A stretch of 54,603 nucleotides of DNA from an uncultured Eubacteriales bacterium. Its GTDB lineage: Bacteria > Bacillota > Clostridia > Lachnospirales > Lachnospiraceae. The DNA lies in NCBI GenBank assembly GCA_900545455.1, contig UQZF01000001.1, positions 1 through 54,603 of the forward strand, in the 5' to 3' direction. The notes beneath the pieces were generated by a model. That model was not told where the DNA came from. It searched no databases and was given only the letters and a program-made list of their open reading frames with translations. The position numbers and the translations under genes are program-made. Positions 623-34,982 of this stretch are shown one piece after another (within the stretch, counting starts at the first letter, position 1; each line of letters begins with the position of its first letter).

Positions 623-640
623 TGCTTAGGACAACAGAGG

Positions 641-3600
641 GTGGGGGATTTTGTGCCCTTTAGAAAGGATTTCCACATGAACAGTTTTGTGTATCCGTTA
701 AAGCACCTTGCGGTCTTTGAGGATATGAAGAGAGATTTGAATAAGGCAGGTAAGGCTGTCCTTGTGACAGGGTGTGTCGAGCAGCAGAAGGCGCACCTTG
801 TTTTTGGCGTGTGCGACAGTAAGGTCAGGCTTATAATCACGCACAACGAGACGCGCGCGAGACAGTTGTACGAGGAGTACAGATTTTTTGACAAGGATGT
901 CGTGTACTACCCTGCGAAGGATTTTATTTTTTATAATGCGGATATACACGGAAATCTCATTGTAAAAGAGAGAATAGACGCGATAAAGCATCTCGCGGAG
1001 AACAAAAAGGCGGGGGAGGATGCGAGGCTGACTGTTGTCACGACGATTGACGGCTGTCTTGATAAGCTGCTTCCGCTCGAATATATTGAGAACAATATCA
1101 TGACGCTCGCGGTCGGCGATGAGGTCAACCTGACGGCGTATGAGAAGAGGCTTGTAAAGCTCGGCTACGAGCGGTGCGCGCAGGCGGAGAGTGCGGGACA
1201 GTTCGCGGTGAGAGGCGGAATCATCGACGTTTTCCCGTTTACCGAGGAGACGCCCTACAGAATTGAGCTCTGGGGGGACGAGATTGACTCGATAAGAAGC
1301 TATGACGCGCAGAGCCAGCGCTCGATTGAGAATGTGGACGAGGTCACATTTTATCCCGCGACGGAGCTTATCTTCTCGTCGGGCGAGATTTTTGCGGCAC
1401 TAAAGAAGATAAAGGCGGACACCGCAAAGCAGGCGGAGCTTTTTGAGAGGGATAAGAAGCTTACTGAGGCGGCACGAATCAGAAACAAGTACGCGGAGCT
1501 CGAGGAGAGGCTTATGCTCGATCCCGAGGGCGTCAACGGCTCGATGGGAATAGAGCGCTTTATCGGGTATCTCGCGGAAAAGACGGTGTCGTTTGCCGAG
1601 TATTTTGACGCAAAGAACACGACGTTTGTGCTCGATGAGCCAGGACGGATTGCGGAGAGACTGAAGGCTGTGCAGTATGAGTTCGGCGAGAGCATGTCGC
1701 ACAGACTTGAGAAAGGTGATATTCTGCCGGAACAGACTAATGTGCTCTATGATGTGTCGTATGTGTACTCGAAGCTTTACAAGGGCGGACTTCTTGCACT
1801 CGCGGTGCTTGATGCGAGGGCTGAGGGACTAAATATCGGCGGACGCTACGATATAGGTGCGAAGGGAATAAGCTCGTACAACAACAGCTTTGAGACACTT
1901 GTATCGGATGTCAGAAGATACAAGAAGGAAGGCTATGTGACCATTCTCGCGTCATCGTCGAGAATGAGGGCTGAGAGACTTGCGGCGGATTTGAGGGACA
2001 ATGACATAACGGCGTTTTTCTCGGACAGATATGACAGGGAGCTGCTTGCGGGCGAGGTCATGACGGTGTTCGGAAATCTCTCAAAGGGCTTTGAGTACCC
2101 GCAGATTAAGTTCGTGCTCATAGCGGAGAGCGATATTTTTACACAGGACAAGAAAAAGAAGAGAGCCAAGGTTAAGAACTACGAGGGCAAATCAATCTCC
2201 GACTTTGCGGAGCTTTCAATAGGCGACTACGTCGTTCACGAGAATCACGGAATGGGTATATACCGCGGTATCGAGAAGGTCGTGGTCGACAAGGTCGAGA
2301 AGGATTATATAAAGATTGAGTACAGCGGCGGAAGCAACCTGTATGTGCTTGCGACGCAGCTTGACAGCATACAGAAGTTCTCGGGGCCTGACGGTCACAA
2401 GCCGAAGCTTAACAAGCTCGGAACGGCTGAGTGGTCTAAGACAAAGTCGAAGGTAAAGACCGCGGTTGCGGGAATCGCAAAGGAGCTTGTCGAGCTCTAC
2501 GCGATAAGGCAGAACAGGCAGGGCTACAGCTTCGGGCCCGACACGGTATGGCAGCAGGAGTTCGAGGAGATGTTCCCTTACGAGGAGACGGACGACCAGC
2601 TCACGGCGATAGCAGAGACCAAGCAGGACATGGAGAGCACGAAGATAATGGACAGACTGCTCTGCGGCGATGTCGGCTTCGGAAAGACGGAGGTTGCGAT
2701 GCGCGCGGCGTTCAAGGCAGTGTGCGACGGCAAGCAGGTTGTGTACCTCGTGCCGACTACGATACTTGCACAGCAGCACTACAACAGCTTTGTGCAGAGA
2801 ATGCAGTCCTTCGGTGTGAGGGTGGAGCTTCTCAGCCGTTTCTGCACGCCTACGCAGGTCAAAAACACGCTCGAGGGCTTAAAAAAGGGAACGGTCGATG
2901 TCGTAATCGGCACGCACAGGGTTCTCTCAAAGGATGTAAAGTTCAAGGATTTGGGGCTTATGATCATAGACGAGGAGCAGCGCTTCGGTGTCACCCACAA
3001 GGAGAAGATTAAGCAGCTAAAGTCTGACCTTGACGTGCTGACACTGTCGGCGACGCCTATTCCGAGAACGCTCCACATGAGCCTCGTCGGAATAAGGGAT
3101 ATGAGCGTGCTCACTGAGGCACCTGTTGACAGAATGCCGATACAGACCTTTGTCACGGAGTACGATGAGGAGCTCATAAGAGAGGCGATAACGCGAGAGC
3201 TCTCAAGAGGCGGTCAGGTATACTATGTTTACAATATGGTAAAGGGCATAGAGGATGTAGCGGCAAAGATTTCCGCGATAGTTCCAGATGCCAACGTGGC
3301 TTACGCGCACGGTCAGATGCACGAGAGACAGCTCGAGAAGATTATGTTTGACTTTATAAACGGTGATATAGACATACTTGTGTCGACAACGATAATCGAG
3401 ACAGGGCTTGATATTCCGAACACTAACACCATAATCATACACGATGCCGACAGGTTCGGTCTGTCACAGCTCTACCAGCTAAGGGGAAGAGTCGGGCGCT
3501 CGAACAGGACGGCGTATGCGTTCTTACTCTACAAGCGCGACAGGATGTTAAGAGAGGAAGCTGAGAAGAGGCTCTCAGCGATAAGGGAGTTCACCGAGCT

Positions 3601-4246
3601 TGGAAGCGGATTTAAGATTGCGATGAAGGACCTCGAGATAAGAGGGGCGGGAAATGTCCTCGGCGAGGAGCAGCACGGGCACATGGCGGCGGTCGGATAC
3701 GACCTGTACTGCAAGATGCTCAATGAGGCGGTGCTTACACTCAGGGGCTACAAAAAGATTGAGGACGAGTTTGAGACGAACGTCGACCTTCCTGTCGACG
3801 CGTTCATACCTGCGACATATATAAGGAGCGAGGCTCAGAAGCTTGACATTTACAAGCGAATTGCGGCGATAACGACGAAGGAGGAGCTTGTCGATATGCA
3901 GGATGAGCTCACCGACCGTTTCGGAGATATGCCTAAGACGGCGATAAGCCTTATGCGCGTGGCATTTATCAAGTCGAACGCGCATCTTGCGGACATCATA
4001 GAGATTAAGGGCTCGCAGTCCGAGATTATAATAAGGCTGTATCCGCAGGCACGCATAGATGTGAACAAGATTCCGCCGTTTGTGAAAAAGTATGACGGCA
4101 GGGTTCAGTTTAAGGTTGAGGCAGTGCCGTATTTCAGATACACTCCTGCGAGGGATGAGTTAAAGACTACGGATAAGTATCTTGACACCGTGACGGAGCT
4201 TGTGCAGGGCATAAGGACGCTGAGGCTTGATGAGACGGACAAATAG
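641..4246 (+). CDS. mfd: Transcription-repair coupling factor Mfd
   Basis: About 1200 aa. Superfamily-2 helicase motifs GDVGFGKTEVA and DEEQRFG, plus a TRCF C-terminal domain. The start is ambiguous: GTG at 641 or the better-placed ATG at 677 (MNSFVYPL). Confidence 0.95.
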   Translation: MGDFVPFRKDFHMNSFVYPLKHLAVFEDMKRDLNKAGKAVLVTGCVEQQKAHLVFGVCDSKVRLIITHNETRARQLYEEYRFFDKDVVYYPAKDFIFYNADIHGNLIVKERIDAIKHLAENKKAGEDARLTVVTTIDGCLDKLLPLEYIENNIMTLAVGDEVNLTAYEKRLVKLGYERCAQAESAGQFAVRGGIIDVFPFTEETPYRIELWGDEIDSIRSYDAQSQRSIENVDEVTFYPATELIFSSGEIFAALKKIKADTAKQAELFERDKKLTEAARIRNKYAELEERLMLDPEGVNGSMGIERFIGYLAEKTVSFAEYFDAKNTTFVLDEPGRIAERLKAVQYEFGESMSHRLEKGDILPEQTNVLYDVSYVYSKLYKGGLLALAVLDARAEGLNIGGRYDIGAKGISSYNNSFETLVSDVRRYKKEGYVTILASSSRMRAERLAADLRDNDITAFFSDRYDRELLAGEVMTVFGNLSKGFEYPQIKFVLIAESDIFTQDKKKKRAKVKNYEGKSISDFAELSIGDYVVHENHGMGIYRGIEKVVVDKVEKDYIKIEYSGGSNLYVLATQLDSIQKFSGPDGHKPKLNKLGTAEWSKTKSKVKTAVAGIAKELVELYAIRQNRQGYSFGPDTVWQQEFEEMFPYEETDDQLTAIAETKQDMESTKIMDRLLCGDVGFGKTEVAMRAAFKAVCDGKQVVYLVPTTILAQQHYNSFVQRMQSFGVRVELLSRFCTPTQVKNTLEGLKKGTVDVVIGTHRVLSKDVKFKDLGLMIIDEEQRFGVTHKEKIKQLKSDLDVLTLSATPIPRTLHMSLVGIRDMSVLTEAPVDRMPIQTFVTEYDEELIREAITRELSRGGQVYYVYNMVKGIEDVAAKISAIVPDANVAYAHGQMHERQLEKIMFDFINGDIDILVSTTIIETGLDIPNTNTIIIHDADRFGLSQLYQLRGRVGRSNRTAYAFLLYKRDRMLREEAEKRLSAIREFTELGSGFKIAMKDLEIRGAGNVLGEEQHGHMAAVGYDLYCKMLNEAVLTLRGYKKIEDEFETNVDLPVDAFIPATYIRSEAQKLDIYKRIAAITTKEELVDMQDELTDRFGDMPKTAISLMRVAFIKSNAHLADIIEIKGSQSEIIIRLYPQARIDVNKIPPFVKKYDGRVQFKVEAVPYFRYTPARDELKTTDKYLDTVTELVQGIRTLRLDETDK

Positions 4247-4286
4247 GGACGGAATGCAAATGATTGTGGCAGGAAATAATATACTG

Positions 4287-4295
4287 TGCTATAAT
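4287..4295 (+). promoter_or_regulatory. Candidate extended -10 promoter (TGcTATAAT) for the deoxysugar operon
   Basis: TGCTATAAT read at 4287-4295, about 40 nt upstream of the rfbF ATG in the only gap after mfd. No good -35 was seen. Confidence 0.4.
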
Positions 4296-4334: not shown

Positions 4335-5108
4335 ATGAAAACAATAATTTTAGCGGGAGGCTTCGGAACGCGAATCAGCGAGGAGAGCCACCTAAAGCCC
4401 AAGCCGATGATTGAAATCGGCGGTATGCCGATGCTGTGGCATATAATGAAGATATATTCACACTACGGATTCAACGATTTCGTGGTTTGTCTGGGATATA
4501 AGCAGTACATGGTGAAGGAATTTTTTGCCGATTACTTTCTGCACACCTCGGATGTCACCTTTGACCTTGCGGCGAACAATATGATTGTCCACAATGTAAA
4601 GACCGAGCCGTGGAAGGTTACGCTTGTTGACACGGGACTAAAGACCATGACCGGAGGAAGGATTAAGAAAGTTCAGGAGTATATAGGCGATGAGCCTTTT
4701 ATGCTGACATACGGTGACGGCGTGTCAGATGTCGACATCAATAAGCTGCTTGAGTATCACAAGTCTCACGGCAAGCTTATGACCATAACGGCAATCAATA
4801 TCGGGCAGCAGTTCGGGGCCCTCGACGTGAGGGAGGACGGCGTGATAACGGCATTCCGCGAGAAGCATGAGCTTGATGGAAGAGTAATAAACGGTGGCTT
4901 TATGGTGTGCCAGCCGGAGGTGTTTGACTACATTGACGGGCCTGACACGGTGTTTGAGAAGGAGCCTGTGGAGAGGCTTGTGTCGGAGGGACAGCTCATG
5001 GCATACCATCATCCTGGATTCTGGAAGAATATGGATACACAGAGGGATAAGCAGAAGCTTGAGGCTATGTGGGAGAGCGGCAACGCTCCGTGGAAGCTTT
5101 GGGATTAG
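4335..5108 (+). CDS. rfbF: Glucose-1-phosphate cytidylyltransferase (CDP-glucose synthase)
   Basis: 257 aa. LAGGFGTRI nucleotidyltransferase loop and the PKPMIEIGGMPMLWHIMKIYSHYG block typical of RfbF/DdhA. Confidence 0.9.
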   Translation: MKTIILAGGFGTRISEESHLKPKPMIEIGGMPMLWHIMKIYSHYGFNDFVVCLGYKQYMVKEFFADYFLHTSDVTFDLAANNMIVHNVKTEPWKVTLVDTGLKTMTGGRIKKVQEYIGDEPFMLTYGDGVSDVDINKLLEYHKSHGKLMTITAINIGQQFGALDVREDGVITAFREKHELDGRVINGGFMVCQPEVFDYIDGPDTVFEKEPVERLVSEGQLMAYHHPGFWKNMDTQRDKQKLEAMWESGNAPWKLWD

Positions 5109-5128
5109 GACATGAGAGGAATTATTTA

Positions 5129-6247
5129 ATGGATTATCAGGGTTTGATGGAATTTTACAGGGATAAGCGTGTGCTTGTTACAGGTCATACGGGCTTTAAG
5201 GGAAGCTGGATGTGCAGAGTGCTTTCGATGGCCGGAGCGCAGGTATGCGGTTATGCGCTTGAGCCGCCGACTAGGCCTTCTCTCTATGAGCTTGCAGGAA
5301 TAAATGACGATGACAGGGTGAAATCCGTCATCGGAGATATAAGGGATTTTGATACGCTCAAGTCTGCATTTGATGATTTCAAGCCGGAAATTGTAATTCA
5401 CATGGCGGCACAACCTATAGTGAGAGAATCATATAAGAATCCAAAGTACACGTTTGAGACGAATATTATGGGAACGGTGAATGTATGCGAGTGTGTAAGA
5501 CTAAGCAGGAGCAGTGAATCCGGGAACTGTGAAGGTGTGCGTTCTTTTGTGAATGTCACAACGGACAAGGTGTATGAGAACAAGGAGCGTGCCAAGAACG
5601 GCTATAAGGAGAACGAACCTTTAGACGGCTATGATCCGTACTCTAATTCCAAGTCCTGCTCTGAGCTTGTGACACACAGCTATGTGCGCTCATTTCTTGC
5701 GGAAGCGGGGATTGCCGTGTCGACGGCGAGAGCCGGGAATGTCATAGGCGGGGGAGACTTTGCTCCTGACAGAATTATTCCCGACTGTGTGAGAGCAGCA
5801 CTGGGCGGACGGGATATAGTAGTGAGAAATCCATATTCGATACGACCTTATCAGCACGTATTAGAGCCTGTGTTTGCATACCTTATGATTGCAAAGGAGC
5901 AGTATGGGAATATAGAGCTGTCAGGATGGTACAATGTAGGACCTGATGACAAGGACTGCGTAACAACCGGCAGGCTTGTGGGTATATTTACGGACTGCTG
6001 GGAAGGTTCGAGATGGTATGTCCGGGGGGACGGTGGACCGCATGAGGCGGGTTTTTTAAAGCTCAACTGTGACAAGCTCAAAAAAACTTTCGGCTGGAAA
6101 CCGGTCTGGAACATAGAGACGGCAGTTGAAAAGACGGTCGAATTTTCAAAGCTGTTAAAAGAGGATCATACGACGGCAGACAAGGTTATAAGCTGTATGA
6201 ACAGCCAGATTAAGGACTATATCAAAACAAGTAATCAATGTAAATAA
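5129..6247 (+). CDS. rfbG: CDP-glucose 4,6-dehydratase
   Basis: VTGHTGFKGSW Rossmann motif and YSNSK catalytic YxxxK. Follows rfbF. The ATG at 5129 has a GAGAGGA RBS; the ORF-track start at 5069 overlaps rfbF and is rejected. There is a short insertion (RLSRSSESGNCEG) relative to what I expect for the family. Confidence 0.88.
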   Translation: MDYQGLMEFYRDKRVLVTGHTGFKGSWMCRVLSMAGAQVCGYALEPPTRPSLYELAGINDDDRVKSVIGDIRDFDTLKSAFDDFKPEIVIHMAAQPIVRESYKNPKYTFETNIMGTVNVCECVRLSRSSESGNCEGVRSFVNVTTDKVYENKERAKNGYKENEPLDGYDPYSNSKSCSELVTHSYVRSFLAEAGIAVSTARAGNVIGGGDFAPDRIIPDCVRAALGGRDIVVRNPYSIRPYQHVLEPVFAYLMIAKEQYGNIELSGWYNVGPDDKDCVTTGRLVGIFTDCWEGSRWYVRGDGGPHEAGFLKLNCDKLKKTFGWKPVWNIETAVEKTVEFSKLLKEDHTTADKVISCMNSQIKDYIKTSNQCK

Positions 6248-6260
6248 AAGGAGCCACATT

Positions 6261-7619
6261 ATGTTTGAAGGCAAAAGTGAAAAGGAAGCGAGAGCACAGA
6301 TTTTAGAACTTGTGAGCGAGTATTGTGATCGTTTTCATAATCAGGACAAGGAGTACAAGGAGGGAGACAGACTGCCTTATGCGGCGAGAGTGTACGACCA
6401 TGACGAGATGGTGAATCTTGTGGATTCGTCGCTTGAGTTCTGGCTCACATCGGGAAGATATACGGCAAGATTTGAGAGTGAATTTGCAGGGTATCTCGGT
6501 GTGCGTTTCTGCAGTCTGGTAAACTCGGGTTCATCCGCCAACCTTCTTGCATTCATGGCTCTTACTTCGCCGCTTCTCGGGGAGAGGGCGGTAAGGCGCG
6601 GTGACGAGGTAATCACGGTGGCAGCAGGATTTCCGACTACAGTGACGCCTGTAATACAGTACGGTGCGGTTCCGGTGTTCGTGGATGTGACGATACCTCA
6701 GTACAATATAGATGTAACGAAGCTTGAGGAGGCATACTCGGATAAGACCAAGGCGGTCATGATTGCACACACGCTTGGAAATCCTTTTGATCTGAAGGCT
6801 GTGAAGGAGTTCTGTGACAGACATAAGCTGTGGCTCATAGAGGACAACTGCGATGCCCTCGGCTCCGAGTACACGATTGACGGCGAGGTTAAGCTGACTG
6901 GAACGGTCGGCGATATAGGAACGAGCAGCTTCTATCCGCCTCATCACATGACCATGGGAGAGGGCGGTGCGGTCTACACTGATAATCCTCTGCTCAACAA
7001 GATTGTGCGCTCCCTCAGGGATTGGGGAAGGGACTGCGTGTGTGCTTCGGGACAGGACAACATGTGCGGACACAGATTTGACGGGCAGTACGGCGAGCTT
7101 CCGAAGGGATATGACCACAAGTATGTGTATTCTCATTTCGGTTACAATCTCAAGGCAACTGACATGCAGGCTGCCATAGGATGTGCACAGCTTGAAAAGT
7201 TTCCGTCGTTTGTTGAGAGAAGGAGAGAAAATTTCAAGGTTCTGTATGAGGGACTTTCAGACCTCGAAGATTATTTCTATCTTCCTGAAGCAGTGGAGAA
7301 TTCCAATCCAAGCTGGTTTGGCTTCTGCCTGACATGCAAGCCGGGAACGGATAAGAACAAAGTTGTAAGATATATTGAAGCACACGGTGTCCAGACGAGA
7401 ATGCTTTTCTCGGGTAATCTTATCAAGCAGCCGTGCTTTGACGGGATGAGGGCGCAGGAAACCGGCTTCCGTGTGGTGGGAGAACTCACAAATACCGACA
7501 TAATTATGGAAAACACATTCTGGATAGGTGTTTATCCGGGAATGACTGAAAAAAAGCTTTCATATATGATAAAAACGATTCATGAGGCTGTGGAAATGGA
7601 GAGAGTATATGAGAATTAA
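6261..7619 (+). CDS. rfbH: PMP/[2Fe-2S]-dependent NDP-4-keto-6-deoxyhexose 3-dehydrase (E1 / RfbH / SpnQ type, DegT family)
   Basis: 452 aa with a DegT/DnrJ/EryC1 fold. SFYPPHHMT has His where aminotransferases carry the Schiff-base Lys. A C..CVCASGQDNMC (CxCx7C) cluster motif is read in the translation. Confidence 0.85.
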   Translation: MFEGKSEKEARAQILELVSEYCDRFHNQDKEYKEGDRLPYAARVYDHDEMVNLVDSSLEFWLTSGRYTARFESEFAGYLGVRFCSLVNSGSSANLLAFMALTSPLLGERAVRRGDEVITVAAGFPTTVTPVIQYGAVPVFVDVTIPQYNIDVTKLEEAYSDKTKAVMIAHTLGNPFDLKAVKEFCDRHKLWLIEDNCDALGSEYTIDGEVKLTGTVGDIGTSSFYPPHHMTMGEGGAVYTDNPLLNKIVRSLRDWGRDCVCASGQDNMCGHRFDGQYGELPKGYDHKYVYSHFGYNLKATDMQAAIGCAQLEKFPSFVERRRENFKVLYEGLSDLEDYFYLPEAVENSNPSWFGFCLTCKPGTDKNKVVRYIEAHGVQTRMLFSGNLIKQPCFDGMRAQETGFRVVGELTNTDIIMENTFWIGVYPGMTEKKLSYMIKTIHEAVEMERVYEN

Positions 7620-9498
7620 GGTATCGGATTATATTGCCGGGCTTGTCGCTGAGCTTGGTATAGAACGTGTATTTACTGTTACCGGAGGAGGAGCCATGCA
7701 CCTTAATGACTCCTTCGGACACAGCAGCGAACTCAGATGTATTTATAATCACCACGAGCAGGCTTGCGCGATTGGGGCAGAAAGTTATGCCCGGATTGCA
7801 GGGAAGCCTGCTCTTTTGTGTGTTACGACAGGCCCGGGAGGGACAAATGCACTCACGGGAGTGCTCGGTGCCTATCTTGATTCGATTCCTATGCTTGTGA
7901 TTTCGGGGCAGGTAAGATATGACACGACGGCGAGAAGCACGGGACTTAATATAAGAGCAATGGGAGATCAGGAGTTCGACATCACGAAGGCTGTCGCGTC
8001 CATGACCAAGTACTGTGAGATGGTCGTTGAGCCTGCAAAGATACGCTGCTGCGTGAAAAAGGCATATCATGAGGCTGTGACGGGCAGACCGGGACCGACT
8101 TGGCTTGATATACCGCTTAATGTCCAGGGAGCCTATATTGATACGGACGAACTTATTGACTATGATGAAAACTGTGATGAGTATGCCGGTTATGAAAAAA
8201 GCCTTCCGCCAAAGCCTGATAGGAAACTTATAATGTCCGTGATTGAGAAGGTGAGAAAGGCGGAAAGACCCGTGCTCAATGCGGGGAACGGAATACGCAT
8301 AGCTGGTGCGGCAGAGATGTTTGAGCGTGTTAAGAGAAAGCTTAACATTCCTGTGGTCACGGGCTGGGACAGCATAGATTTATGTGCGGACGACGAGTCG
8401 CTTTATGTGGGGCGAGCGGGAATAATGGGAGACAGAGCCGGCAATTTTGCGGTGCAGAACAGCGATTTGTTTTTGTCAGTAGGCAGCAGGCTCAGCATAA
8501 GACAGGTCGGGTATAATTATAAGAGCTGGGCGAGGGCAGCGTACACGATAGTTGAGGATGTTGATGCGGAGGAGCTTAAAAAGCCGACGCTGCACGTCGA
8601 TATGCCGGTGTGGGCGGATGCGCTTGATTTTCTCACCGCGCTCGACGAGTGCCTGACGCAGCTATGTGGTGAGGACGGAAAGCTCTTTCCTGACGGGAAG
8701 TGGCATGAGGCTTGCCGTGATTGGAAAAAGAACTATCCGGTGGTAATGCCTAAGCACTATGAGAAATGTGTCGAGAACGGGCACGAGTATGCGAACGTCT
8801 ACGCCTTTATAAAGGAGCTGAGCAGGCGTCTTTATCCGGGACAGATAACGGTAGTAGGGAACGGTTCGGCTTGTGTCGTGGGAAGTCATGCGTATGTCAT
8901 CAAGGAGGGACAGAGATTTATTATCAATTCCGCAGTTGCTTCCATGGGATATGACCTTCCGGCGGCAATAGGAGCATGGGTGGCACAAAAAACGTGTACT
9001 GTCAACGAAAACAGTGGCAATTCGGGTTCGGATTATGATATAATATGCGTCACGGGAGACGGAAGCATACAGATGAATCTTCAAGAGCTTCAGACGATTA
9101 TCCATCACAGGATGAACATGAAAATATTTGTCATAAACAATGGCGGATACCATTCAATACGCCAGACACAGAAGAACTTTTTTGGTGAACCTCTTGTCGG
9201 AATAGGAGAGGACAGCGGTGATTTGAGCTTCCCCGATATGGCGAAGCTTGCATGGGCTTACGGGTATGAATACCGCTCAATAGGCAGCAATGACAAGTTC
9301 GATATGCTTGATGAATTTCTTGAGATTAAGGGTCCGGCAATCTGTGAGGTGTTTGTGAGCAGAGGACAGAAGTTCGAGCCGAAGTCGGCGACGAAGAGAC
9401 TTGATGATGGAACTCTTGTATCAGCGCCGCTTGAGGATCTGGCACCGTTTTTACCTAAGGAGGAGTTAGAGCGGAATATGTTTATACCGCTTGTGTGA
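7609..9498 (+). CDS. Thiamine-diphosphate-dependent enzyme, acetolactate-synthase-like; candidate YerE-type sugar C-branching enzyme
   Basis: About 629 aa. ThDP motif GDGSIQMN...VINNGGY and an N-terminal TPP_enzyme_N-like GGGAMHLND block. The position directly after the E1-type dehydrase matches the yersiniose (ddhABC-yerE-yerF) logic. The ATG at 7609 overlaps the rfbH stop. Confidence 0.7.
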   Translation: MRIKVSDYIAGLVAELGIERVFTVTGGGAMHLNDSFGHSSELRCIYNHHEQACAIGAESYARIAGKPALLCVTTGPGGTNALTGVLGAYLDSIPMLVISGQVRYDTTARSTGLNIRAMGDQEFDITKAVASMTKYCEMVVEPAKIRCCVKKAYHEAVTGRPGPTWLDIPLNVQGAYIDTDELIDYDENCDEYAGYEKSLPPKPDRKLIMSVIEKVRKAERPVLNAGNGIRIAGAAEMFERVKRKLNIPVVTGWDSIDLCADDESLYVGRAGIMGDRAGNFAVQNSDLFLSVGSRLSIRQVGYNYKSWARAAYTIVEDVDAEELKKPTLHVDMPVWADALDFLTALDECLTQLCGEDGKLFPDGKWHEACRDWKKNYPVVMPKHYEKCVENGHEYANVYAFIKELSRRLYPGQITVVGNGSACVVGSHAYVIKEGQRFIINSAVASMGYDLPAAIGAWVAQKTCTVNENSGNSGSDYDIICVTGDGSIQMNLQELQTIIHHRMNMKIFVINNGGYHSIRQTQKNFFGEPLVGIGEDSGDLSFPDMAKLAWAYGYEYRSIGSNDKFDMLDEFLEIKGPAICEVFVSRGQKFEPKSATKRLDDGTLVSAPLEDLAPFLPKEELERNMFIPLV

Positions 9499-9506
9499 TT
9501 TTTAGT

Positions 9507-10457
9507 ATGAAAAAGGCGTATGTGACAGGTGCGACAGGTGCAATAGGAATGGCACTTGTGGCAGAGCTTCTCAAAAACAATACAGAGGTTACGGTATTTT
9601 TACGAAGAGATTCCGAGCGCAGTAGCCGTATATCGGAGCGGTTTGAGCGGGAGCTTGGGAGAGGGTTTTTGAATTTAGAGTATGTGAGGCTTGAGGAGCT
9701 TGCAGACTTTGAAAAGGATGCAGATGTGCAGCGGGGGGACAGTGTGTTTTATCACCTTGGATGGAGCGGTACATTCGGAAGTCTGAGAAATGATGCCGGG
9801 ATGCAGCAGAAGAATGTGGAGTACACACTGGATGCGGTGAGGCTTGCGGGAAGGCTCGGATGTTCAAAGTTCATCGGAGTGGGCTCGCAGGCGGAATACG
9901 GCAGGGCAGGTACAAGGCTTACCCCGGATACGGTGACGGCACCGGAGAATGAGTACGGCAGGGCGAAGCTTGATGCAGGAATAAAGAGCCGCAGACTGTG
10001 CGGTGAGCTTGGCATTGAACATGCATGGGTGAGAGTGTTAAGCGTCTACGGGCCTTATGACGGCATGAATACCATGATAACATCCGTTATAAGAGGGCTT
10101 TTGAACGGACGCAGGGTTCCGCTCACAAGGGGAGAACAGGTATGGAATTATCTGTACTCCGAGGATGCGGCGAAGGAGCTGTATCTGCTTGGAGAAGCTA
10201 TGAGGGACGGTGCGGTATATATTCTTGCAGGCCATGAGGAACACAGCCTCAGAGAGTATGTCATAAGGCTCTGCAGAACAGTGGGGGCTGATGAGAAACT
10301 GCTGGGATTCGGTGATGTACCGTATGGTGCAGGACAGGTGATGAGCCTGACGGCGGATATAAGTGCAGTGTGTTGCGATACAGGGTATATTCCGGATACC
10401 ACATTTGAGGACGGAATAAAGAAGACAACAGAGTGGGTAAAATCACTTCCTGAATAA
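9507..10457 (+). CDS. NAD(P)-dependent SDR epimerase/reductase (candidate YerF-like side-chain or 4-keto reductase)
   Basis: GATGAIG Rossmann motif and YGRAK (YxxxK). ATG at 9507; the GTG at 9495 is less likely. Confidence 0.75.
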   Translation: MKKAYVTGATGAIGMALVAELLKNNTEVTVFLRRDSERSSRISERFERELGRGFLNLEYVRLEELADFEKDADVQRGDSVFYHLGWSGTFGSLRNDAGMQQKNVEYTLDAVRLAGRLGCSKFIGVGSQAEYGRAGTRLTPDTVTAPENEYGRAKLDAGIKSRRLCGELGIEHAWVRVLSVYGPYDGMNTMITSVIRGLLNGRRVPLTRGEQVWNYLYSEDAAKELYLLGEAMRDGAVYILAGHEEHSLREYVIRLCRTVGADEKLLGFGDVPYGAGQVMSLTADISAVCCDTGYIPDTTFEDGIKKTTEWVKSLPE

Positions 10458-10479
10458 GCAGTGTGAAAAGAGGATAATT

Positions 10480-11541
10480 GTGGATAAGCAGCTAAAAAAG
10501 AAGATAAGCATAATGGTACCGTGTTATAACGAGGAGGAGAATGTCATTCCGATGAGTGAGGCACTTGTTGATGTGATGACGAGAGAGCTTCCGCAGTATG
10601 ACTACGAGATTTTATTTATAGATAACTGTTCACAGGACAGAACAAGGGAGTATCTGGAGAAAATATGTGCAGGAAATAAGAATATCAAGGCGATATTCAA
10701 TGTGACCAACTTCGGACAGTTCAACTCTCCGTTCTACGGAATGTGTCAGACGACGGGAGACTGTACTATAAGCGTGTGCTGTGATTTTCAGGACCCGGTG
10801 GAGATGATTCCCAAGTTCGTTGCAGAGTGGGAGAAGGGCTATAAGATTGTAAGCGGAATAAAAAGCCACAGCAAAGAAAATAAGTTCATATACCTTTTAA
10901 GAACCATATACTACAAGATGATACGCAAAATGTCCGATGTCGAGATGATTGAGCATTTTACGGGCTTCGGGCTGTATGATAAGACGTTTATTCATCTTTT
11001 AAGACAGCTTGACGATCCGATGCCTTTTATCCGCGGCATAGTGGCCGAGTATGGTTTTAAGCGCAAAGATTTAGAGTACACACAGCCTAAGAGACGTGCG
11101 GGAAAGACAAAGAACAATTTCTATTCGCTGTATGATGCGGCGATGTTAAGCATAACATCTTACACGAAAGTGGGCTTGAGACTTGCCACGTTTTTCGGTT
11201 TTATCGCGTCGGCGTTATCGATGCTTGTAGCTATAATTTATCTTGTGTACAAGCTCACGCACTGGCATACGTTCACTGCCGGAACGGCACCTATTGTAAT
11301 CGGTATATTCCTAATCGGTTCAATTCAGCTTTTCTTTATAGGGCTTATCGGTGAATATGTGCTCAATATCAACAAGCGTGTGATTCACAGACCGCTTGTT
11401 GTTGTGGAAAAGACAATAAATTTTGACGGTCAGCCGATTCCGATGGCGGGAACTACACAGGATGCGATTACAAACGAGAACGCATACGACGAGCATCAGC
11501 GCATGCTTGTACAGCAGGGGGAGTCAGGAGAGGACAGATAA
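10480..11541 (+). CDS. Family-2 glycosyltransferase, polyprenyl-phosphate sugar synthase type (GtrB/CsbB/DPM1-like)
   Basis: MVPCYNEE, IDNCSQDRT and CDFQDPVEMIP motifs. Two C-terminal TM helices (LATFFGFIASALSMLVAIIYLVY and APIVIGIFLIGSIQLFFIGLIGEY), as in GtrB-type enzymes. Confidence 0.75.
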   Translation: MDKQLKKKISIMVPCYNEEENVIPMSEALVDVMTRELPQYDYEILFIDNCSQDRTREYLEKICAGNKNIKAIFNVTNFGQFNSPFYGMCQTTGDCTISVCCDFQDPVEMIPKFVAEWEKGYKIVSGIKSHSKENKFIYLLRTIYYKMIRKMSDVEMIEHFTGFGLYDKTFIHLLRQLDDPMPFIRGIVAEYGFKRKDLEYTQPKRRAGKTKNNFYSLYDAAMLSITSYTKVGLRLATFFGFIASALSMLVAIIYLVYKLTHWHTFTAGTAPIVIGIFLIGSIQLFFIGLIGEYVLNINKRVIHRPLVVVEKTINFDGQPIPMAGTTQDAITNENAYDEHQRMLVQQGESGEDR

Positions 11542-12479
11542 TGGAGACTAAGAATAAAAATATACCGGTTGTTATTTTTCATGCGGGCTGTCCGGAACAT
11601 CTTCCGTACAGCGTTCATTCGGCAGAAAAGTATAATAAGAGAGTTATTCTCCTCGGAGATGATGCCAACAGGACTGTTGCGAAGGAGTGGTTCGATTACG
11701 AAAAGCTCAATCTTGACAGGTATAACGGGTTTCTTAAAATGTTTGAGAATTATTCGACCTACACGGATTTTTTTGCCGAGATATGCTTTAAAAGATACTT
11801 TTTGTACTATGAGCTCATGAAAGAGCTCAATTTTGACAGAATAATGGTTGCGGAGAGCGACTTGTATAATTGTGCCGATTACAGCAGCATTCCATCGCTT
11901 GATAAGGCGTATGCGATGGTATCCACGACGTCGGGGCAGGATAAGGATTACGGATGGAGTTCATGCTGTCACTGTTCGTACTGGACGAAAGCTGCTCTTG
12001 ATGATTTCTTAACCTTCTGCGAGGAGACTTTCAGGGACAACAAGGAGCTCCTCCTTGAAAAATGGAATTATCAGAAGGAACATAATCATGCCGGCGGCGT
12101 TTGCGATATGACGCTTGTGTACCTGTGGTCGAAGGATAATGATAAGGTGCTCAATTCCGCGAAAGTGTTTGACGGCGGAACGATTGACCAGAATTTGTGC
12201 GACAGGGTGAATTTTACGGACTATGAGTATAAGTACAATTCGGTTGCGGGAATCAAGAAGTATGTTCTTAAAAAAGATGCGGACGGCAATAAGCTGCCTT
12301 ATCTTGTGAGACAGGACGGAACACTTGTGAGAGTGTTTGCGATACATTGTTCGGGAAGGGCAAAGACGGCGATTAAGGCTTTTGATAGGAGCTATGCGGC
12401 AGTGTGTATGTCACAGATGAAGGCACAGATTAAGATTAAGCTTGGAGCGCTCAAGGGAAAGCTCCTGTCACGCGGTTAG
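11541..12479 (+). CDS. Hypothetical protein, possibly a GT-A-like glycosyltransferase
   Basis: 312 aa, soluble. Good RBS with an ATGA-style junction to the upstream gene. No motif I can name. The pattern of a beta-strand-like N-terminus (IPVVIFHAG) and an acidic ESD motif is only suggestive. Confidence 0.6.
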   Translation: METKNKNIPVVIFHAGCPEHLPYSVHSAEKYNKRVILLGDDANRTVAKEWFDYEKLNLDRYNGFLKMFENYSTYTDFFAEICFKRYFLYYELMKELNFDRIMVAESDLYNCADYSSIPSLDKAYAMVSTTSGQDKDYGWSSCCHCSYWTKAALDDFLTFCEETFRDNKELLLEKWNYQKEHNHAGGVCDMTLVYLWSKDNDKVLNSAKVFDGGTIDQNLCDRVNFTDYEYKYNSVAGIKKYVLKKDADGNKLPYLVRQDGTLVRVFAIHCSGRAKTAIKAFDRSYAAVCMSQMKAQIKIKLGALKGKLLSRG

Positions 12480-12515
12480 GCAATCGCCGTACAGATAAAA
12501 GAATGGGGATTATCT

Positions 12516-13904
12516 ATGAAAGACATTATTCGTAAAATAATTAAATCATGGGCGGCTACGGAAGGAAATGTAAATTCCACGGAAGATATACTTGAGTGGG
12601 TGGAAAGGCTTAACCGGAATGCCAACGTTTCGATTACGGAGTGCGTATCAGGAGATAACAGCTTCTGGTTCTATGATGATTATGTCGGGGAGATACACAA
12701 CAGAAAGCGTTCATTCTTCTCAATCACGGGAATACAGCGATATGAGAATAACAAGCTTGTTGCGGAACAGCCTATAATCGTGCAGCCGGAGATTGGTTAC
12801 CTTGGCATAATATGTAAAGAGATAGATGGTGTCATCAATTTTCTTATGCAGGCTAAGATAGAGCCGGGAAATGTCAATGTCATACAGATTTCGCCTACAA
12901 TACAGGCGACTAAGAGCAACTACACCAGAAGACATGGAGGGGTACTGCCTAATTATTTTGATTATTTCTATAATTCAAAGAATTACACGGTGATATATGA
13001 CCAGATTCAGTCAGAGCAGGCAGGGAGATTTTATAAGAAGAGAAACCGCAATATCATAATGCTTCTTGATGAGGACATAGAGGTGCTGCCGAATTATAAA
13101 TGGATGACGCTGGGACAGATTAAGCAGCTTATGAAGATTGACAACCTTGTCAATATGGACACGAGAACGGTGCTCTCCGGAATACCGCTCACCAACTGCG
13201 GATTTTCGGCGGAAGAACTTTCGGACATTGAGAAATGTTTTTCGGACAAGAGCTTTTATCATTCGATATTCACGGGAGGAATCACTGCGAATATTTCCGA
13301 AATATATCAGTTCCTCAACAATTATAAGATGTTTGAGGAGAAAAAGACGGTGCTTGTGCCGCTCAACCAGCTTCGTGACTGGAGCGTTGATGATTATGGT
13401 GTCACATGCAACCATGAGGCCGATTACATGGTGAGATACTATGATATAGAGATTAACGGAAGAGAAGTAAAGCAGTGGAGCCAGCCGCTTTTCAAGGCGA
13501 TAGGAAAGGCAACATTCGGTCTTATCACAAGAACCATGAACGGCAAGAAGGAGTTCTTGGTCGCAGGCAGACCGGAGATAGGTTCCTTCGACTATATAGA
13601 GTTAGGACCGTCTGTTCAGTGGGAGCCGACGAGAAAGCCGGAGGATGATAATGTAGTCGACGGTCTTTTCAGAGATAAGATTGCACATGGAAAGGCAAAG
13701 TATCATGTAATTCTCTCCGAGGAGGGCGGACGCTTTTACCATGAGCAGAATTACAATTATATTATTGAGATTGAACCGAAGGAGTTGGAAGAGGTACCTG
13801 AGGGATATTTCTGGATAGATTATGGAACACTTAATTACATGATACAGATTAACAACTGCCTTAATATTCAGCTTAGAAATCTGTTGTCATTGATTGAAAT
13901 ATAA
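12516..13904 (+). CDS. NDP-hexose 2,3-dehydratase (EvaA/TylX3/SpnO family)
   Basis: 462 aa with a duplicated-domain architecture. Blocks SFFSITGI, QPEIGYLGII, MQAKIEPGNVN and IQATKSNYTRRHGG are characteristic of the hexose 2,3-dehydratase family. Confidence 0.82.
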   Translation: MKDIIRKIIKSWAATEGNVNSTEDILEWVERLNRNANVSITECVSGDNSFWFYDDYVGEIHNRKRSFFSITGIQRYENNKLVAEQPIIVQPEIGYLGIICKEIDGVINFLMQAKIEPGNVNVIQISPTIQATKSNYTRRHGGVLPNYFDYFYNSKNYTVIYDQIQSEQAGRFYKKRNRNIIMLLDEDIEVLPNYKWMTLGQIKQLMKIDNLVNMDTRTVLSGIPLTNCGFSAEELSDIEKCFSDKSFYHSIFTGGITANISEIYQFLNNYKMFEEKKTVLVPLNQLRDWSVDDYGVTCNHEADYMVRYYDIEINGREVKQWSQPLFKAIGKATFGLITRTMNGKKEFLVAGRPEIGSFDYIELGPSVQWEPTRKPEDDNVVDGLFRDKIAHGKAKYHVILSEEGGRFYHEQNYNYIIEIEPKELEEVPEGYFWIDYGTLNYMIQINNCLNIQLRNLLSLIEI

Positions 13905-13915
13905 TGGAGCGAAAT

Positions 13916-14866
13916 ATGATTAGAATAGGTATACTTGGAGCAGCGGACATAGCGTATAACAAATTCATTCCGGCACTTTGCCGGGTGGGCGGTGCAGAGT
14001 GTGCGGGTGTTGCGTCCAATTCAGGAAAGAAACTTGAAAGATTTGTTGAAAAATATAACCTGCATGTATATTCATCTTATGACGAGGTGATAAATGACGG
14101 GAGTGTTGACTGCGTGTACATACCTCTTCCTCCCGCATTTCATTATGAGTGGGCGAAAAAGGCACTTCTCGCCGGAAAACATGTTTTTCTTGAGAAGCCG
14201 TCCACAACGTCTCTTGAATATACGAAGGAGCTTGTGGAGCTGGCAGATGAGAGAGGTCTTGTAATTCAGGAAAATTATATGTTCCAGTATCATGACCAGC
14301 TTGCAAGGCTGAAGGAGCTTGTAGCAGAGGGCAGAATCGGAAAGCTCAGACTTGTGAGGACAAGCTTCGGTTTCCCAAGACGTGCGGAGGGTGATTTCCG
14401 TTACAACAAGGCATTGGGCGGCGGAACCATGATGGACAACGGCGGTTATACGATAAAGCTTATAACGGAACTTCTCGGGGAGAGCACAAGATATATAAGT
14501 TCCAAACTTGACTATGACGATGAGACGGGTGTGGATATATTCGGAACCGCTGAGTTTACTAACGATGACGGGGTTATTGCACAGGCAGCGTTCGGAATGG
14601 ATTGTCAGTACCAGTGCTCGCTTGAACTGTGGGGCACCAAGGGAAGAATCACGACGGGAAGAATCTACACGGCACCGGCAGGCTATGCACCGACTGCGTT
14701 GATAGAGACAGGTTCGGAGAGTGTAACGGTAGAACTTCCGGGTGATGACCATTTTGTAAAATCGATAAAAATATTTTTGGAAGCTTTGAATGATGAAAAT
14801 ATAAGAAAGAATATGGCGGCAGCTCTTGTAAGACAGTCGGCGTTTGTAGAGGATGTCAGAAAATGA
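13916..14866 (+). CDS. Gfo/Idh/MocA-family oxidoreductase, candidate NDP-hexose 3-ketoreductase
   Basis: IGILGAADIAYNKFIPAL Rossmann motif and an FLEKP motif. It immediately follows the 2,3-dehydratase, the pairing seen in 2-deoxysugar pathways. The ATG at 13916 has a GGAG RBS; the alternative is 13904. Confidence 0.75.
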   Translation: MIRIGILGAADIAYNKFIPALCRVGGAECAGVASNSGKKLERFVEKYNLHVYSSYDEVINDGSVDCVYIPLPPAFHYEWAKKALLAGKHVFLEKPSTTSLEYTKELVELADERGLVIQENYMFQYHDQLARLKELVAEGRIGKLRLVRTSFGFPRRAEGDFRYNKALGGGTMMDNGGYTIKLITELLGESTRYISSKLDYDDETGVDIFGTAEFTNDDGVIAQAAFGMDCQYQCSLELWGTKGRITTGRIYTAPAGYAPTALIETGSESVTVELPGDDHFVKSIKIFLEALNDENIRKNMAAALVRQSAFVEDVRK

Positions 14867-16752
14867 ATACAAAGTCAAAGTTCGGTAAAGCGGCAGTGCA
14901 GGTGAGTCAGATTGCTGTCATAGCACTATTTTTCATAATGTTTTTCCTGTCTGCGAGGACGTCGGTGCTGTACGGCACGGTATGGCAGAACAGCTTCAAA
15001 AGCATGGTAAATGCAGGGCTTATAGTGAGTGCCGTTATATTCGGAGCATGTATGGGTGTTGTCGTATATGCCATGCGTAAGGGAGAGGGGGCAAAGCCTG
15101 ATTATCGTGATGCGGCGGCGTGCGGACTGCTTATAATTGTACATTACATTATAAGGGTTCAGATAGTGGGGACATTGCAGCTTGATGAGGGACTCACATG
15201 TTATGAATCCCTTGAGCGTCTTGTATACCACCCTGATATGATTTTAAGTGATTTCATAGAGGCGGGAAAAATTGCCGACAGAAGTGCTTACGGATACTGT
15301 ATGTTTGCACTCATGGGTGAGTTTATGGTTCCGGGAAAAGGAACGGGATTTCAGTGGAGCCAGCTCTATATGGGAATTGCGGCGGCGTGCTGCATATATA
15401 TGACATTCAGAAGACTTTTTCCAAAGGCAAGGCAGATAATTGTGTGGTTTGGGGCACTTGTGGTATCTTTTTCACCGATGACGCTCGGTATGTCAACTCT
15501 GTGCGGATTAGAGTACGGAATGACGATGTTCTTTATCTATGCATTTTACTGCTGTGTGTCCAAAAGATATATTCTTATGGTGTTCTGGCTTATAATGCTT
15601 GGAACGACCAAGAGCTCCGGAATGCTGGTTGCGCTTATGTTTGCGGGAGCATTCTTAGTCGGTATATTTACCACGGGAATAAGAAATAAGAAAAAAACAA
15701 CGGCTGCGGATGAGGCGGACAAAGAGAACGCATCGCAGGAAACTGAGGATACCGAAGGCGATGAATACAATGTTAAGACGGGAATTATAGTCATAGGTGC
15801 CATACTCGCGGTTGTTCTGTTTGTATACGGTGTCATAAGAGTATGCGCCATGAACGGAATTGCTTTTTCGGGTTATTATATTAAGATTAAGCTTGCGCAG
15901 CTGTATGTGCTCAATTTTAACTGGATATGGCTCATAATAGTGATTGCGGGGATTGTCATGGTATCGGCGAACATGAGGGTGAGAAGAACCCACAGGATGG
16001 AGTTCACACCGTGGCTTGTGCTTGTTGGAAGCTACATGGTGTATGTGCTGTATCTGCTCGCATATCCTAAGGCGACGCTTCCGAGATATAATATGCTTGC
16101 TGACACGTTGTTTGCAATGTTCGGTGTGATTATGCTCATAAAACTGTTCGAGAGGCGGAGAGTTATTCTCACAACGCTCACAGTGCTTGGCGGACTTATG
16201 TTTGCCGAGACGTTTATCACCGTTGACCCGGTGAGTGCGGCACTTTTTACCAATATGCAGACGAACCGTTTTCCTATACTCTATACAGCCGGCTTTTCTG
16301 ATGAGCAGAAGGACATGAACGGCAATCCGGGTGATTACGCTTATTACAATTATCATTATACTTTTGTGAACAATGCGATTGACAGTATTCTCGACGAGTA
16401 CGGAGCCGACACGGACATAATCGTCGCATCGTCGGCAAACGAGGGAGAGACACAGTTCCGTCAGGACAATATAAGATGGAATCCGAAGGAGCGTGCACTT
16501 GTGTATTACTCAGAGGACAGCGTATCCGGCTGTTACAGCGTCAACAGAGTTGCCGTCGACGGAATACTGAAGCTTTCTGTACTTCCTGAGAGGCTGGTAT
16601 ATATTGAGATTCCGTGGAACCACGGCGATTCAAAGAGTGCAATTGATATGCTTGAAAATTATTACAGCGTGGACGGACCGAAGGTAATGTATGAAGGATG
16701 GCAGGGAACGGTGCTGTATTACTTTTTTACACTTAAACAGGTTCAGAAATAA
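14863..16752 (+). CDS. Polytopic membrane protein, candidate GT-C-fold glycosyltransferase
   Basis: 629 aa with about 11-12 predicted TM helices. Acidic first loop (QLDEG), acidic low-complexity loop (ADEADKENASQETEDTEGDE), and a roughly 170-aa soluble C-terminal domain. ATGA overlap with the upstream gene. Confidence 0.55.
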   Translation: MNTKSKFGKAAVQVSQIAVIALFFIMFFLSARTSVLYGTVWQNSFKSMVNAGLIVSAVIFGACMGVVVYAMRKGEGAKPDYRDAAACGLLIIVHYIIRVQIVGTLQLDEGLTCYESLERLVYHPDMILSDFIEAGKIADRSAYGYCMFALMGEFMVPGKGTGFQWSQLYMGIAAACCIYMTFRRLFPKARQIIVWFGALVVSFSPMTLGMSTLCGLEYGMTMFFIYAFYCCVSKRYILMVFWLIMLGTTKSSGMLVALMFAGAFLVGIFTTGIRNKKKTTAADEADKENASQETEDTEGDEYNVKTGIIVIGAILAVVLFVYGVIRVCAMNGIAFSGYYIKIKLAQLYVLNFNWIWLIIVIAGIVMVSANMRVRRTHRMEFTPWLVLVGSYMVYVLYLLAYPKATLPRYNMLADTLFAMFGVIMLIKLFERRRVILTTLTVLGGLMFAETFITVDPVSAALFTNMQTNRFPILYTAGFSDEQKDMNGNPGDYAYYNYHYTFVNNAIDSILDEYGADTDIIVASSANEGETQFRQDNIRWNPKERALVYYSEDSVSGCYSVNRVAVDGILKLSVLPERLVYIEIPWNHGDSKSAIDMLENYYSVDGPKVMYEGWQGTVLYYFFTLKQVQK

Positions 16753-16770
16753 CGGAAAGGAAGAAGAGTT

Positions 16771-17932: not shown

Positions 17933-17994
17933 TTTATAATAAGTATCCGAATATAAATGTTCGGGAATTATATTACAATTTGAGGAGGATAATT

Positions 17995-26856: not shown

Positions 26857-26857
26857 G

Positions 26858-28342: not shown

Positions 28343-28389
28343 CATTTCATTACTATTTATGCCGCGGCTGCGGTGGAATGGAGATTAAT

Positions 28390-29799: not shown

Positions 29800-29845
29800 A
29801 AAGCCTAAAGCGGAGCTTTCAAGCAAAGTTTAATGGAGGATAGAT

Positions 29846-33979: not shown

Positions 33980-33998
33980 AACGGAAGGCAGCAATCAT

Positions 33999-34957: not shown

Positions 34958-34982
34958 ATTTCAGACGACAGGAGGCTGTGGG

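Follow-up and report, generated by a model that had tools for sequence, protein, structure and literature searches.

Contig UQZF01000001.1 of the assembly GCA_900545455.1, from an uncultured Eubacteriales bacterium of the Lachnospiraceae, was analyzed over its positions 1 to 54,603 (this whole stretch of 54,603 nt is the window), and the present study concerns an operon in it that is predicted to encode the synthesis of an unusual deoxysugar. Eleven co-directional open reading frames (ORFs) on the + strand occupy positions 4335–17904; consecutive gaps range from −11 to +36 nt, and four gene pairs overlap, so that the run is one 11-gene operon. A first-pass annotation of this DNA had described a co-directional, tightly packed deoxysugar gene run ending at 14866. 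Direction and packing were borne out but the end was not, as the unit reaches 17904. In profile searches all seven genes named at that stage were found at their coordinates, on the + strand and in the families proposed. The features of the locus are listed below, with the matches or evidence in brackets. Abbreviations are CDP, cytidine diphosphate; NDP, nucleoside diphosphate; PMP, pyridoxamine phosphate; ThDP, thiamine diphosphate; SDR, short-chain dehydrogenase/reductase; GT, glycosyltransferase; AF2, AlphaFold2.

4266–4295, + strand: promoter-like site in the 88-nt gap after mfd (consensus scan, 10 of 12 positions, extended −10 TG; weak)
4335–5108, + strand: glucose-1-phosphate cytidylyltransferase, DdhA/RfbF (TIGR02623)
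5129–6247, + strand: CDP-glucose 4,6-dehydratase, DdhB/RfbG (TIGR02622)
6261–7619, + strand: PMP/[2Fe-2S] CDP-4-keto-6-deoxyhexose 3-dehydrase of the E1/DdhC/RfbH type (NF011936, 3bcx)
7609–9498, + strand: YerE-like ThDP carboligase (TPP_enzyme_N/M/C, JanthE 8rph)
9507–10457, + strand: extended SDR, presumably a YerF-like enzyme that reduces the branch carbonyl (Epimerase family)
10480–11541, + strand: GT2 polyprenyl-phosphate glycosyltransferase of the GtrB/ArnC/PgfS type (GtrB 5ekp)
11541–12479, + strand: orphan soluble 312-aa protein with a retaining GT-A-like fold (AF2 model, Foldseek)
12516–13904, + strand: NDP-hexose 2,3-dehydratase of the EvaA/TylX3/SpnO family (Hexose_dehydrat, EvaA 4j7g)
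13904–14866, + strand: Gfo/Idh/MocA NDP-3,4-diketo-2,6-dideoxyhexose 3-ketoreductase of the KijD10 type (GFO_IDH_MocA, 3rbv; alternative start 13916)
14863–16752, + strand: orphan polytopic 629-aa membrane protein with a GT-C-like fold (AF2 model, Foldseek)
16771–17904, + strand: 377-aa polytopic membrane protein with ~10 transmembrane segments (no family match)
17946–17965: terminator-like hairpin after the eleventh gene, the sole one near the 3′ end (weak consensus match)
17980–18873, + strand: zinc-ribbon single-pass membrane protein (after the block in most syntenic loci)

For the CDP-glucose 4,6-dehydratase the longest ORF begins at a GTG at 5069; gene callers on identical contigs use 5129 or 5147. 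The 17980 gene is preceded by a gap of 75 nt with promoter-like and terminator-like sites. A separate promoter is probable for this gene, which may thus lie outside the operon; a co-transcribed unit extending to 18873 is possible.

The first two genes encode the enzymes that start from glucose-1-phosphate. The 4335 product exceeded the cut-off of the equivalog TIGR02623 (402 bits against 300) and the 5129 product that of TIGR02622 (399 bits against 278), and the DdhA-type cytidylyltransferase is 80–99% identical at the amino acid level between syntenic loci. The third product scored 727 bits with NF011936 (cut-off 423). In order to place it relative to E1 and ColD, we compared it with the sequences of solved structures: the closest was E1 of Yersinia (PDB 3bcx) with an E value of 9e-154, against 1e-50 for ColD, and on these values an assignment as a ColD-type enzyme or an aminotransferase was rejected. 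Both motifs pointed out at first sight, SFYPPHHMT with its His-for-Lys exchange and CxCx7C, are present in the protein. SFYPPHHMT occupies residues 223–231 with H228 aligned to His220 of E1, and the cluster cysteines C259-x-C261-x7-C269 are joined by a fourth one, C197. An E3/DdhD-type reductase was not found in the window, where the scanned ORFs contain no Fer2, FAD_binding_6 or NAD_binding_1 domain, nor was one found in loci elsewhere that carry the core of this pathway. Without an encoded E3, E1 has to draw on a general reductant in the manner of SpnQ.

The product of the fourth gene carries the domains TPP_enzyme_N/M/C and the motif GDGS...NN at 483–511, and its gene sits between those of E1 and the SDR, as in other YerE loci. 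It remained under every cut-off of the acetohydroxyacid synthase (AHAS) equivalogs, the best being TIGR00118 with 303 bits against 538. The closest solved relative is JanthE from Janthinobacterium sp. HH01 (PDB 8rph), which its depositors describe as a YerE-like, ketone-accepting enzyme: the match extends over the full length with 2e-109 and 370 bits, whereas AHAS structures reached at most 188 bits (1e-52 or weaker). We therefore rejected a role as acetolactate synthase, and the early suspicion that the enzyme is YerE-like and not of the AHAS/IlvB type was confirmed. Closeness to the YerE subclass was judged via JanthE, whose own motif is CDG; in the window protein it is the canonical GDG. 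The 7609 product is thus a predicted YerE-like carboligase that would add an acyl branch at C-4, presumably with pyruvate as the donor. The SDR encoded directly downstream belongs to the Epimerase family (96 bits) and carries the YxxxK motif, and structure comparison found no close solved relative. Its gene directly follows the ThDP gene in nearly all of 80 related metagenome loci, which were sampled with the window ThDP protein as the seed, and we presume that it is a YerF-like reductase of the branch carbonyl.

The identity of the donor deserves a separate consideration. YerE-like enzymes vary widely in donor preference and JanthE accepts donors from C3 to C6, so that the same pathway could run with a longer 2-oxo acid, as with ErwE, MyGE and JanthE, and yield a branch of more than two carbons. 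However, the erwiniose cluster holds aldolase or dehydrogenase genes for a special 2-oxo acid and the operon has none, and pyruvate is abundant. We consider a longer branch quite unlikely.

The second set of sugar genes lies further downstream. The 12516 product passes the Hexose_dehydrat model with 432 bits over two stretches, as the first-pass annotation had led us to expect, and it matches EvaA (4j7g) with 4e-76. Its residues E116 and E167 align with the catalytic E139 and E190 of EvaA, whose mutation abolishes activity. The Gfo protein matches KijD10 (3rbv) with 2e-62; the next Gfo structure follows at 1e-29, more than 30 orders of magnitude behind, and in view of this gap to all other Gfo structures a generic sugar dehydrogenase is unlikely. 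EvaA and KijD10, the best solved relatives of the pair, are actinomycete enzymes that act on deoxythymidine diphosphate (dTDP) substrates in the vancosamine and digitoxose pathways, whereas the window pair is clostridial. The reductase gene overlaps the 3′ end of the 2,3-dehydratase gene and the two are inherited together: in 22 of 25 loci the Gfo reductase has a 2,3-dehydratase as its partner.

We were interested in the nucleotide to which the substrate of this pair is attached. The only nucleotidyltransferase and the only 4,6-dehydratase of the operon are the CDP-specific ones. Firmicutes bacterium CAG:882 is the closest named genome, and all syntenic loci of the CAG:882 type that reach far enough upstream carry DdhA and DdhB. 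RmlA and RmlB are absent from the window, and none was found within 10 kb in ~19 syntenic loci. Outside this clade the homologues of the 2,3-dehydratase are 51–55% identical and lie beside RmlA/RmlB in 8 of 12 loci, which indicates that the CAG:882 clade has moved into a CDP context. In a neighbor-joining tree built without bootstrapping, the dehydratases from CDP contexts group into a single clade, and its sister is a CAG:882 paralogue adjoining a GDP-mannose 4,6-dehydratase (GDP, guanosine diphosphate) and an fcl-like SDR. The position of this sister copy suggests that the 2,3-dehydratase family does change its nucleotide context. Alternatively, the 2,3-dehydratase and the 3-ketoreductase could act on dTDP-4-keto-6-deoxyglucose supplied by rmlA and rmlB located elsewhere, in which case the operon would merely co-locate two unrelated pathways. 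Every characterized member of the family uses dTDP sugars, the nearest relatives outside the clade adjoin RmlA/RmlB as described, and rml genes are common in Firmicutes. This explanation is nevertheless difficult to reconcile with the lack of RmlA and RmlB around the syntenic loci, with the separate branch of the clade and its sister next to a GDP-mannose dehydratase, and with the lack of any enzyme that could complete a dTDP sugar; we regard it as improbable.

The locus of the sister copy has a composition of its own. In Firmicutes bacterium CAG:882 scf142 (L012:8958-14554) the second 2,3-dehydratase paralogue, 60% identical to the window protein, is located between a GT8 and a GT2 gene and is followed by the GDP-mannose 4,6-dehydratase (474 bits) and the fcl-like SDR; a Gfo reductase is lacking. 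This arrangement hints at a GDP-linked 2-deoxygenation pathway.

The block as a whole is well conserved. The exact 2,3-dehydratase sequence occurs on at least 23 contigs. The complete block was found in the same order in 11 species-representative genomes (L001–L011) and in 6 human-gut metagenome contigs, and it is also present in two divergent contigs, L113 and L114, with ThDP proteins 74–77% identical. Gene order is identical in at least 19 independent loci with ThDP identity down to 74%, and such a recurrence means that the arrangement is not a chance juxtaposition. Between the window and the loci L002 and L006, synonymous divergence (dS) was saturated with values of 1.1–3.3, and the ratio of nonsynonymous to synonymous divergence (dN/dS) was 0.004–0.17 for all twelve genes and 0.03–0.05 for the 2,3-dehydratase. 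These low ratios at saturated synonymous sites indicate that the block is maintained as a unit. In L114 (10073-11461) two ORFs of 386 and 68 aa take the place of an intact 2,3-dehydratase, which could reflect a frameshift, a pseudogene or an assembly error.

The remaining genes of the operon relate to delivery of the sugar. The GT2 protein matches GtrB (5ekp) with 5e-42 and ArnC with 1e-27, and dolichol-phosphate mannose synthase (DPMS) was matched as well; all three enzymes load a sugar onto polyprenyl phosphate. The NCBIfam models PgfS (179 bits) and ArnC (116 bits) both scored under their cut-offs. Two C-terminal transmembrane helices were predicted with segments within residues 231–295, and the triad ThDP-SDR-GT2 is conserved among related loci. 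For the proteins of 312, 629 and 377 aa no sequence family was matched up to E = 5, with Pfam and NCBIfam both negative for the 312-aa protein and Pfam for the 629-aa protein. The 312-aa protein has 27 homologues in a search of 5.8 billion proteins. Its AF2 model, with a predicted local distance difference test score (pLDDT) of 91, gave GT6/GT8 as the best Foldseek matches (E about 1e-5 to 1e-6, best 3e-6), so that in its modeled fold the protein resembles the retaining GT-A glycosyltransferases of GT6/GT8. An invariant S106-D107 could act as an ExD motif. The 629-aa protein contains ~12 transmembrane segments and a C-terminal globular domain, and 24 homologues were found in the large protein search. 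In the AF2 model built from these relatives (pLDDT 76), all significant Foldseek matches were GT-C enzymes working with polyprenyl-phosphate donors, namely ArnT (3e-4), ALG9, AftB, OST, EmbC and PMT, and the protein is presumed to be an extracytoplasmic transferase that would use a polyprenyl-phosphate sugar. The 377-aa membrane protein is inherited together with the block (37–91% identity) and is a candidate flippase or second transferase. Surface-glycan machinery, which the first-pass annotation had placed next to the cluster, is therefore present within the operon itself in the form of the GT2 and the predicted GT-C-fold protein.

This equipment is reminiscent of the two-step envelope glycosylation systems of the ArnC/ArnT, GtrB/GtrC, CsbB/YfhO and PgfS type; the window has a related GT2 with C-terminal transmembrane helices and, within the same operon, a putative GT-C-fold protein. 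In contrast to these systems, the donor here would be a CDP sugar and not a uridine diphosphate (UDP) sugar, the GT-C candidate falls into no Pfam family, and the small flippase was not found. We also considered a secreted secondary metabolite, instead of the envelope, as the target of glycosylation, since the chemistry of 2,3-dehydratase, 3-ketoreductase and E1 homologue is otherwise known from actinomycete antibiotics. However, the window contains no polyketide synthase, non-ribosomal peptide synthetase, ribosomally synthesized and post-translationally modified peptide (RiPP) or GT1-type natural-product glycosyltransferase gene, and the transferases found are of the polyprenyl-phosphate and GT-C types. 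A natural-product role is accordingly highly improbable.

From the observed enzyme families, operon structure, conservation and selection on the block we propose the following pathway. DdhA and DdhB would convert glucose-1-phosphate via CDP-glucose to CDP-4-keto-6-deoxy-D-glucose, steps that are supported by family assignment. The EvaA-like 2,3-dehydratase would remove the C-2 hydroxyl and the KijD10-like reductase would act on the new C-3 ketone, giving a CDP-4-keto-2,6-dideoxyhexose, from which the E1-type dehydrase would take off the C-3 hydroxyl with electrons from a general ferredoxin or flavodoxin. We place 2-deoxygenation before 3-deoxygenation because the dehydratase works through a 3-keto tautomer, for which the C-3 hydroxyl is required, as set out in a 2022 review; the same review documents the sequence of 2,3-dehydratase, 3-ketoreductase and an E1 homologue served by general reductases as the SpnO/SpnN/SpnQ logic. 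The YerE-like ThDP enzyme would then put an activated two-carbon unit, presumably from pyruvate, on the C-4 ketone. Enzymes of the YerE type take simple deoxygenated, bare pyranone acceptors, which makes a 2,3,6-trideoxy-4-ulose a plausible substrate. After reduction of the acetyl branch by the SDR, the GtrB/ArnC-like GT2 would load the sugar onto undecaprenyl phosphate and, after flipping, the GT-C-fold membrane protein would attach it to a cell-envelope polymer or protein. In this scheme we infer which donor acid and which acceptor are used, as well as the stereochemistry and the step order. We give an even chance to the proposal that the operon makes CDP-2,3,6-trideoxy-4-C-(1-hydroxyethyl)hexose (2-deoxy-yersiniose) and delivers it via undecaprenyl phosphate to the surface. 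The initial expectation of two deoxysugar gene sets in one operon thus holds, and the branched trideoxy product, one of two that it allowed for, is a prediction from these genes.

Several points weigh against this proposal. Use of CDP sugars by the 2,3-dehydratase and the 3-ketoreductase is inferred from genomic context, and our search for rml genes was limited to the window and the syntenic loci. The window encodes no E3. The E1 enzyme could compete for CDP-4-keto-6-deoxyglucose, which would give ordinary yersiniose as well. The structural assignments of the two orphans come with modest template modeling (TM) scores, 0.35–0.47 to GT6/GT8 for the 312-aa protein and 0.34–0.42 to GT-C enzymes for the 629-aa protein, and family scans of the operon and window found no small flippase of the GtrA, GtcA or ArnE/F type. 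The GT-A-fold orphan travels with the 2,3-dehydratase and reductase, which leaves room for a second product. Finally, all characterized 2,3-dehydratases listed in the 2022 review use dTDP sugars and come from antibiotic pathways, so that a CDP-linked member would be new.

Room for a second product leads to a different reading of the operon, in which two products share one intermediate. A branched 3,6-dideoxy sugar of the ordinary CDP-yersiniose type would come from E1, ThDP enzyme and SDR for the GT2 and the GT-C protein, and the 2,3-dehydratase and 3-ketoreductase would turn part of the CDP-4-keto-6-deoxyglucose into a 2,6-dideoxyhexose that is transferred by the GT-A orphan. Such a division of labor would fit the inheritance of the GT-A orphan, 2,3-dehydratase, reductase and membrane proteins as a block downstream of the core, which works alone in many other Clostridia, and the presence of two glycosyltransferases and two polytopic membrane proteins in one operon. 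It also has a counterpart in Oscillibacter, where the 2,3-dehydratase/Gfo pair forms an independent 2,6-dideoxy pathway next to a GT2 and a GtrII-type GT-C. However, completing a 2,6-dideoxy sugar takes a 4-ketoreductase or 3,5-epimerase as carried by the dTDP loci, and family scans revealed neither of them, nor any second 4-ketoreductase, in the operon; the one SDR that might be free for this task is always found with the ThDP gene. We hold two separate products to be possible but rather unlikely.

The Oscillibacter locus mentioned above (L014:6826-18383, Oscillibacter sp. GMB15532, a cultured organism) has the order UbiA-HAD-GtrII-2,3-dehydratase-Gfo-GT2-RmlC-SDR-GLF-RmlA-RmlB. Similar dTDP-based 2,6-dideoxyhexose sets beside a polyprenyl-phosphate GT2 and a GtrII-type GT-C occur in L013, L018, L019, L022 and L025. 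On this basis gut Oscillospiraceae may carry 2,6-dideoxy sugars on their envelope.

Returning to 2-deoxy-yersiniose as the proposed product, two described pathways provide the closest comparisons. The CDP-yersiniose A pathway of Yersinia pseudotuberculosis O:VI (DdhA-D, YerE, YerF) shares with the window the activation by CDP, an E1 with His-for-Lys and [2Fe-2S] motif, and a YerE-like ThDP enzyme followed by a reductase, in the window the SDR presumed to act like YerF. In contrast to it, the window lacks E3/DdhD, contains the additional 2,3-dehydratase and 3-ketoreductase, belongs to a Gram-positive host and has a polyprenyl-phosphate GT2 and a putative GT-C for delivery instead of O-antigen assembly. 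The additional 2-deoxygenation genes argue for an acceptor other than CDP-4-keto-3,6-dideoxyglucose. The TDP-forosamine enzymes SpnO/SpnN/SpnQ of Saccharopolyspora spinosa follow the same logic, with a Nudix-type 2,3-dehydratase, a 3-ketoreductase and an E1 homologue, and neither system has a dedicated E3; SpnQ draws on general ferredoxin or flavodoxin reductases. SpnO/N/Q and related routes, however, work on dTDP sugars, continue with aminotransferases and serve antibiotic glycosylation, whereas the window has a CDP context and, in the proposed pathway, C-C branching as the next step and the envelope as the target.

Next, we considered how far the pathway extends among Clostridia. Assemblies of Lachnospiraceae and Oscillospiraceae contain a great many homologues of the ThDP enzyme at 57–70% identity. 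About 20 of the 80 sampled metagenome loci carry the plain core ddhA-ddhB-ddhC-ThDP-SDR-GT2, and 15 loci for which the full 10 kb upstream were available show ThDP-SDR...GT2 with no ddhABC nearby. In this sample the genes for 2,3-dehydratase, reductase, GT-A orphan and both membrane proteins were restricted to loci with at least 84% identity to the seed. Core loci such as L026, L054 and L115 agree with the window in these six genes and their order, with identities of 63–78% for E1, ThDP enzyme and GT2; the GT-A orphan, 2,3-dehydratase, reductase and window membrane proteins are missing from them, and LicD or other variable genes are present instead. The notion that a YerE-type CDP pathway is rare in Clostridia did not hold up, because gut members of both families widely carry the six-gene core; at the sequence level a yersiniose-type core is ordinary there. 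The distinctive and rare part is the 2-deoxygenation add-on, which is confined to the CAG:882-related clade. A third type of YerE-like locus was found at L083:9851-16092, with a ThDP gene (~60% identical, longer N-terminus), an SDR, a Methyltransf_14 sugar C-methyltransferase, a second SDR and a GT2. The pattern recurs in L071, L072, L077, L084, L086-L088, L094, L102 and L103, with no ddhABC within 10 kb upstream.

In the literature consulted, YerE-type sugars are located in Gram-negative bacteria, mycobacteria and actinomycete metabolites, and among gut organisms yersiniose has been reported only from the capsule of Bacteroides fragilis. We found no paper that describes a clostridial yersiniose-type core, and such loci may have been listed before. 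The same applies to the full composition of the window, for which the first-pass annotation knew of no described system: none was found in the literature, and a prior listing in a 2024 in-silico survey of YerE-like enzymes is possible.

The surroundings of the operon fit a clostridial chromosome, with sporulation genes (SpoVT, SpoIIE) and a pth-mfd neighborhood in the window. The genes pth and mfd lie at the left (62-4246) and spoVT 44 kb to the right (48262-48849). In many Firmicutes these three are close neighbors, so the distance between them suggests that the sugar operon and accessory genes may occupy a variable insertion region. A tRNA (transfer RNA) scan found no tRNA in the window and hence no sign of an integrated element. 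Directly downstream of the operon, 17980-18873 (+) and 18942-19799 (−) encode convergent paralogous single-pass membrane proteins (32% identity over 194 residues, E 4e-27) without a family match, the former with an N-terminal zinc ribbon. An 874-aa protein with no Pfam match and with C-terminal cysteine-pair (zinc-ribbon-like) motifs is encoded at 21584-24208, and its gene includes at 22523-22647 three copies of a 42-bp tandem repeat encoding a 'DLNGIDKGI...' unit. Four genes in a row at 26281-32203 encode a TetR regulator, a DUF6937/DUF6938 protein (417 and 397 bits), an MFS_2 sugar transporter and a GH36 alpha-galactosidase, and the DUF6937/DUF6938 protein may be part of a galactoside utilization unit. 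A second, separate glycan-related run at 33200-41269 encodes a 259-aa protein, a GT8, a GT2 (Glyco_trans_2_3) and an acyltransferase and also holds genes for two ABC exporters whose transmembrane and ATPase domains are fused.

Little is known of the surface glycans of gut Firmicutes, although these glycans influence recognition by the immune system and susceptibility to phages. The human-gut host of this operon probably decorates its surface with a sugar that has not yet been described. That a gut clade recruited the 2,3-dehydratase/3-ketoreductase pair to CDP substrates, and displays the sugar of CDP-2-deoxy-yersiniose via undecaprenyl phosphate and an unclassified GT-C family, is in our estimation just short of an even chance. 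If this reading is true, the monosaccharides of bacteria would gain a new member, a branched 2,3,6-trideoxy sugar of eight carbons that is not known from any glycan, antibiotic-type 2-deoxygenation would serve envelope decoration in commensals, and the 2,3-dehydratase family would extend past dTDP sugars. It would also provide a first functional handle on two orphan families, of GT-A and GT-C fold. Beyond this operon, gut Clostridia contain a large uncharacterized pool of YerE-like branched-sugar loci, with a possible use for tertiary-alcohol biocatalysis.

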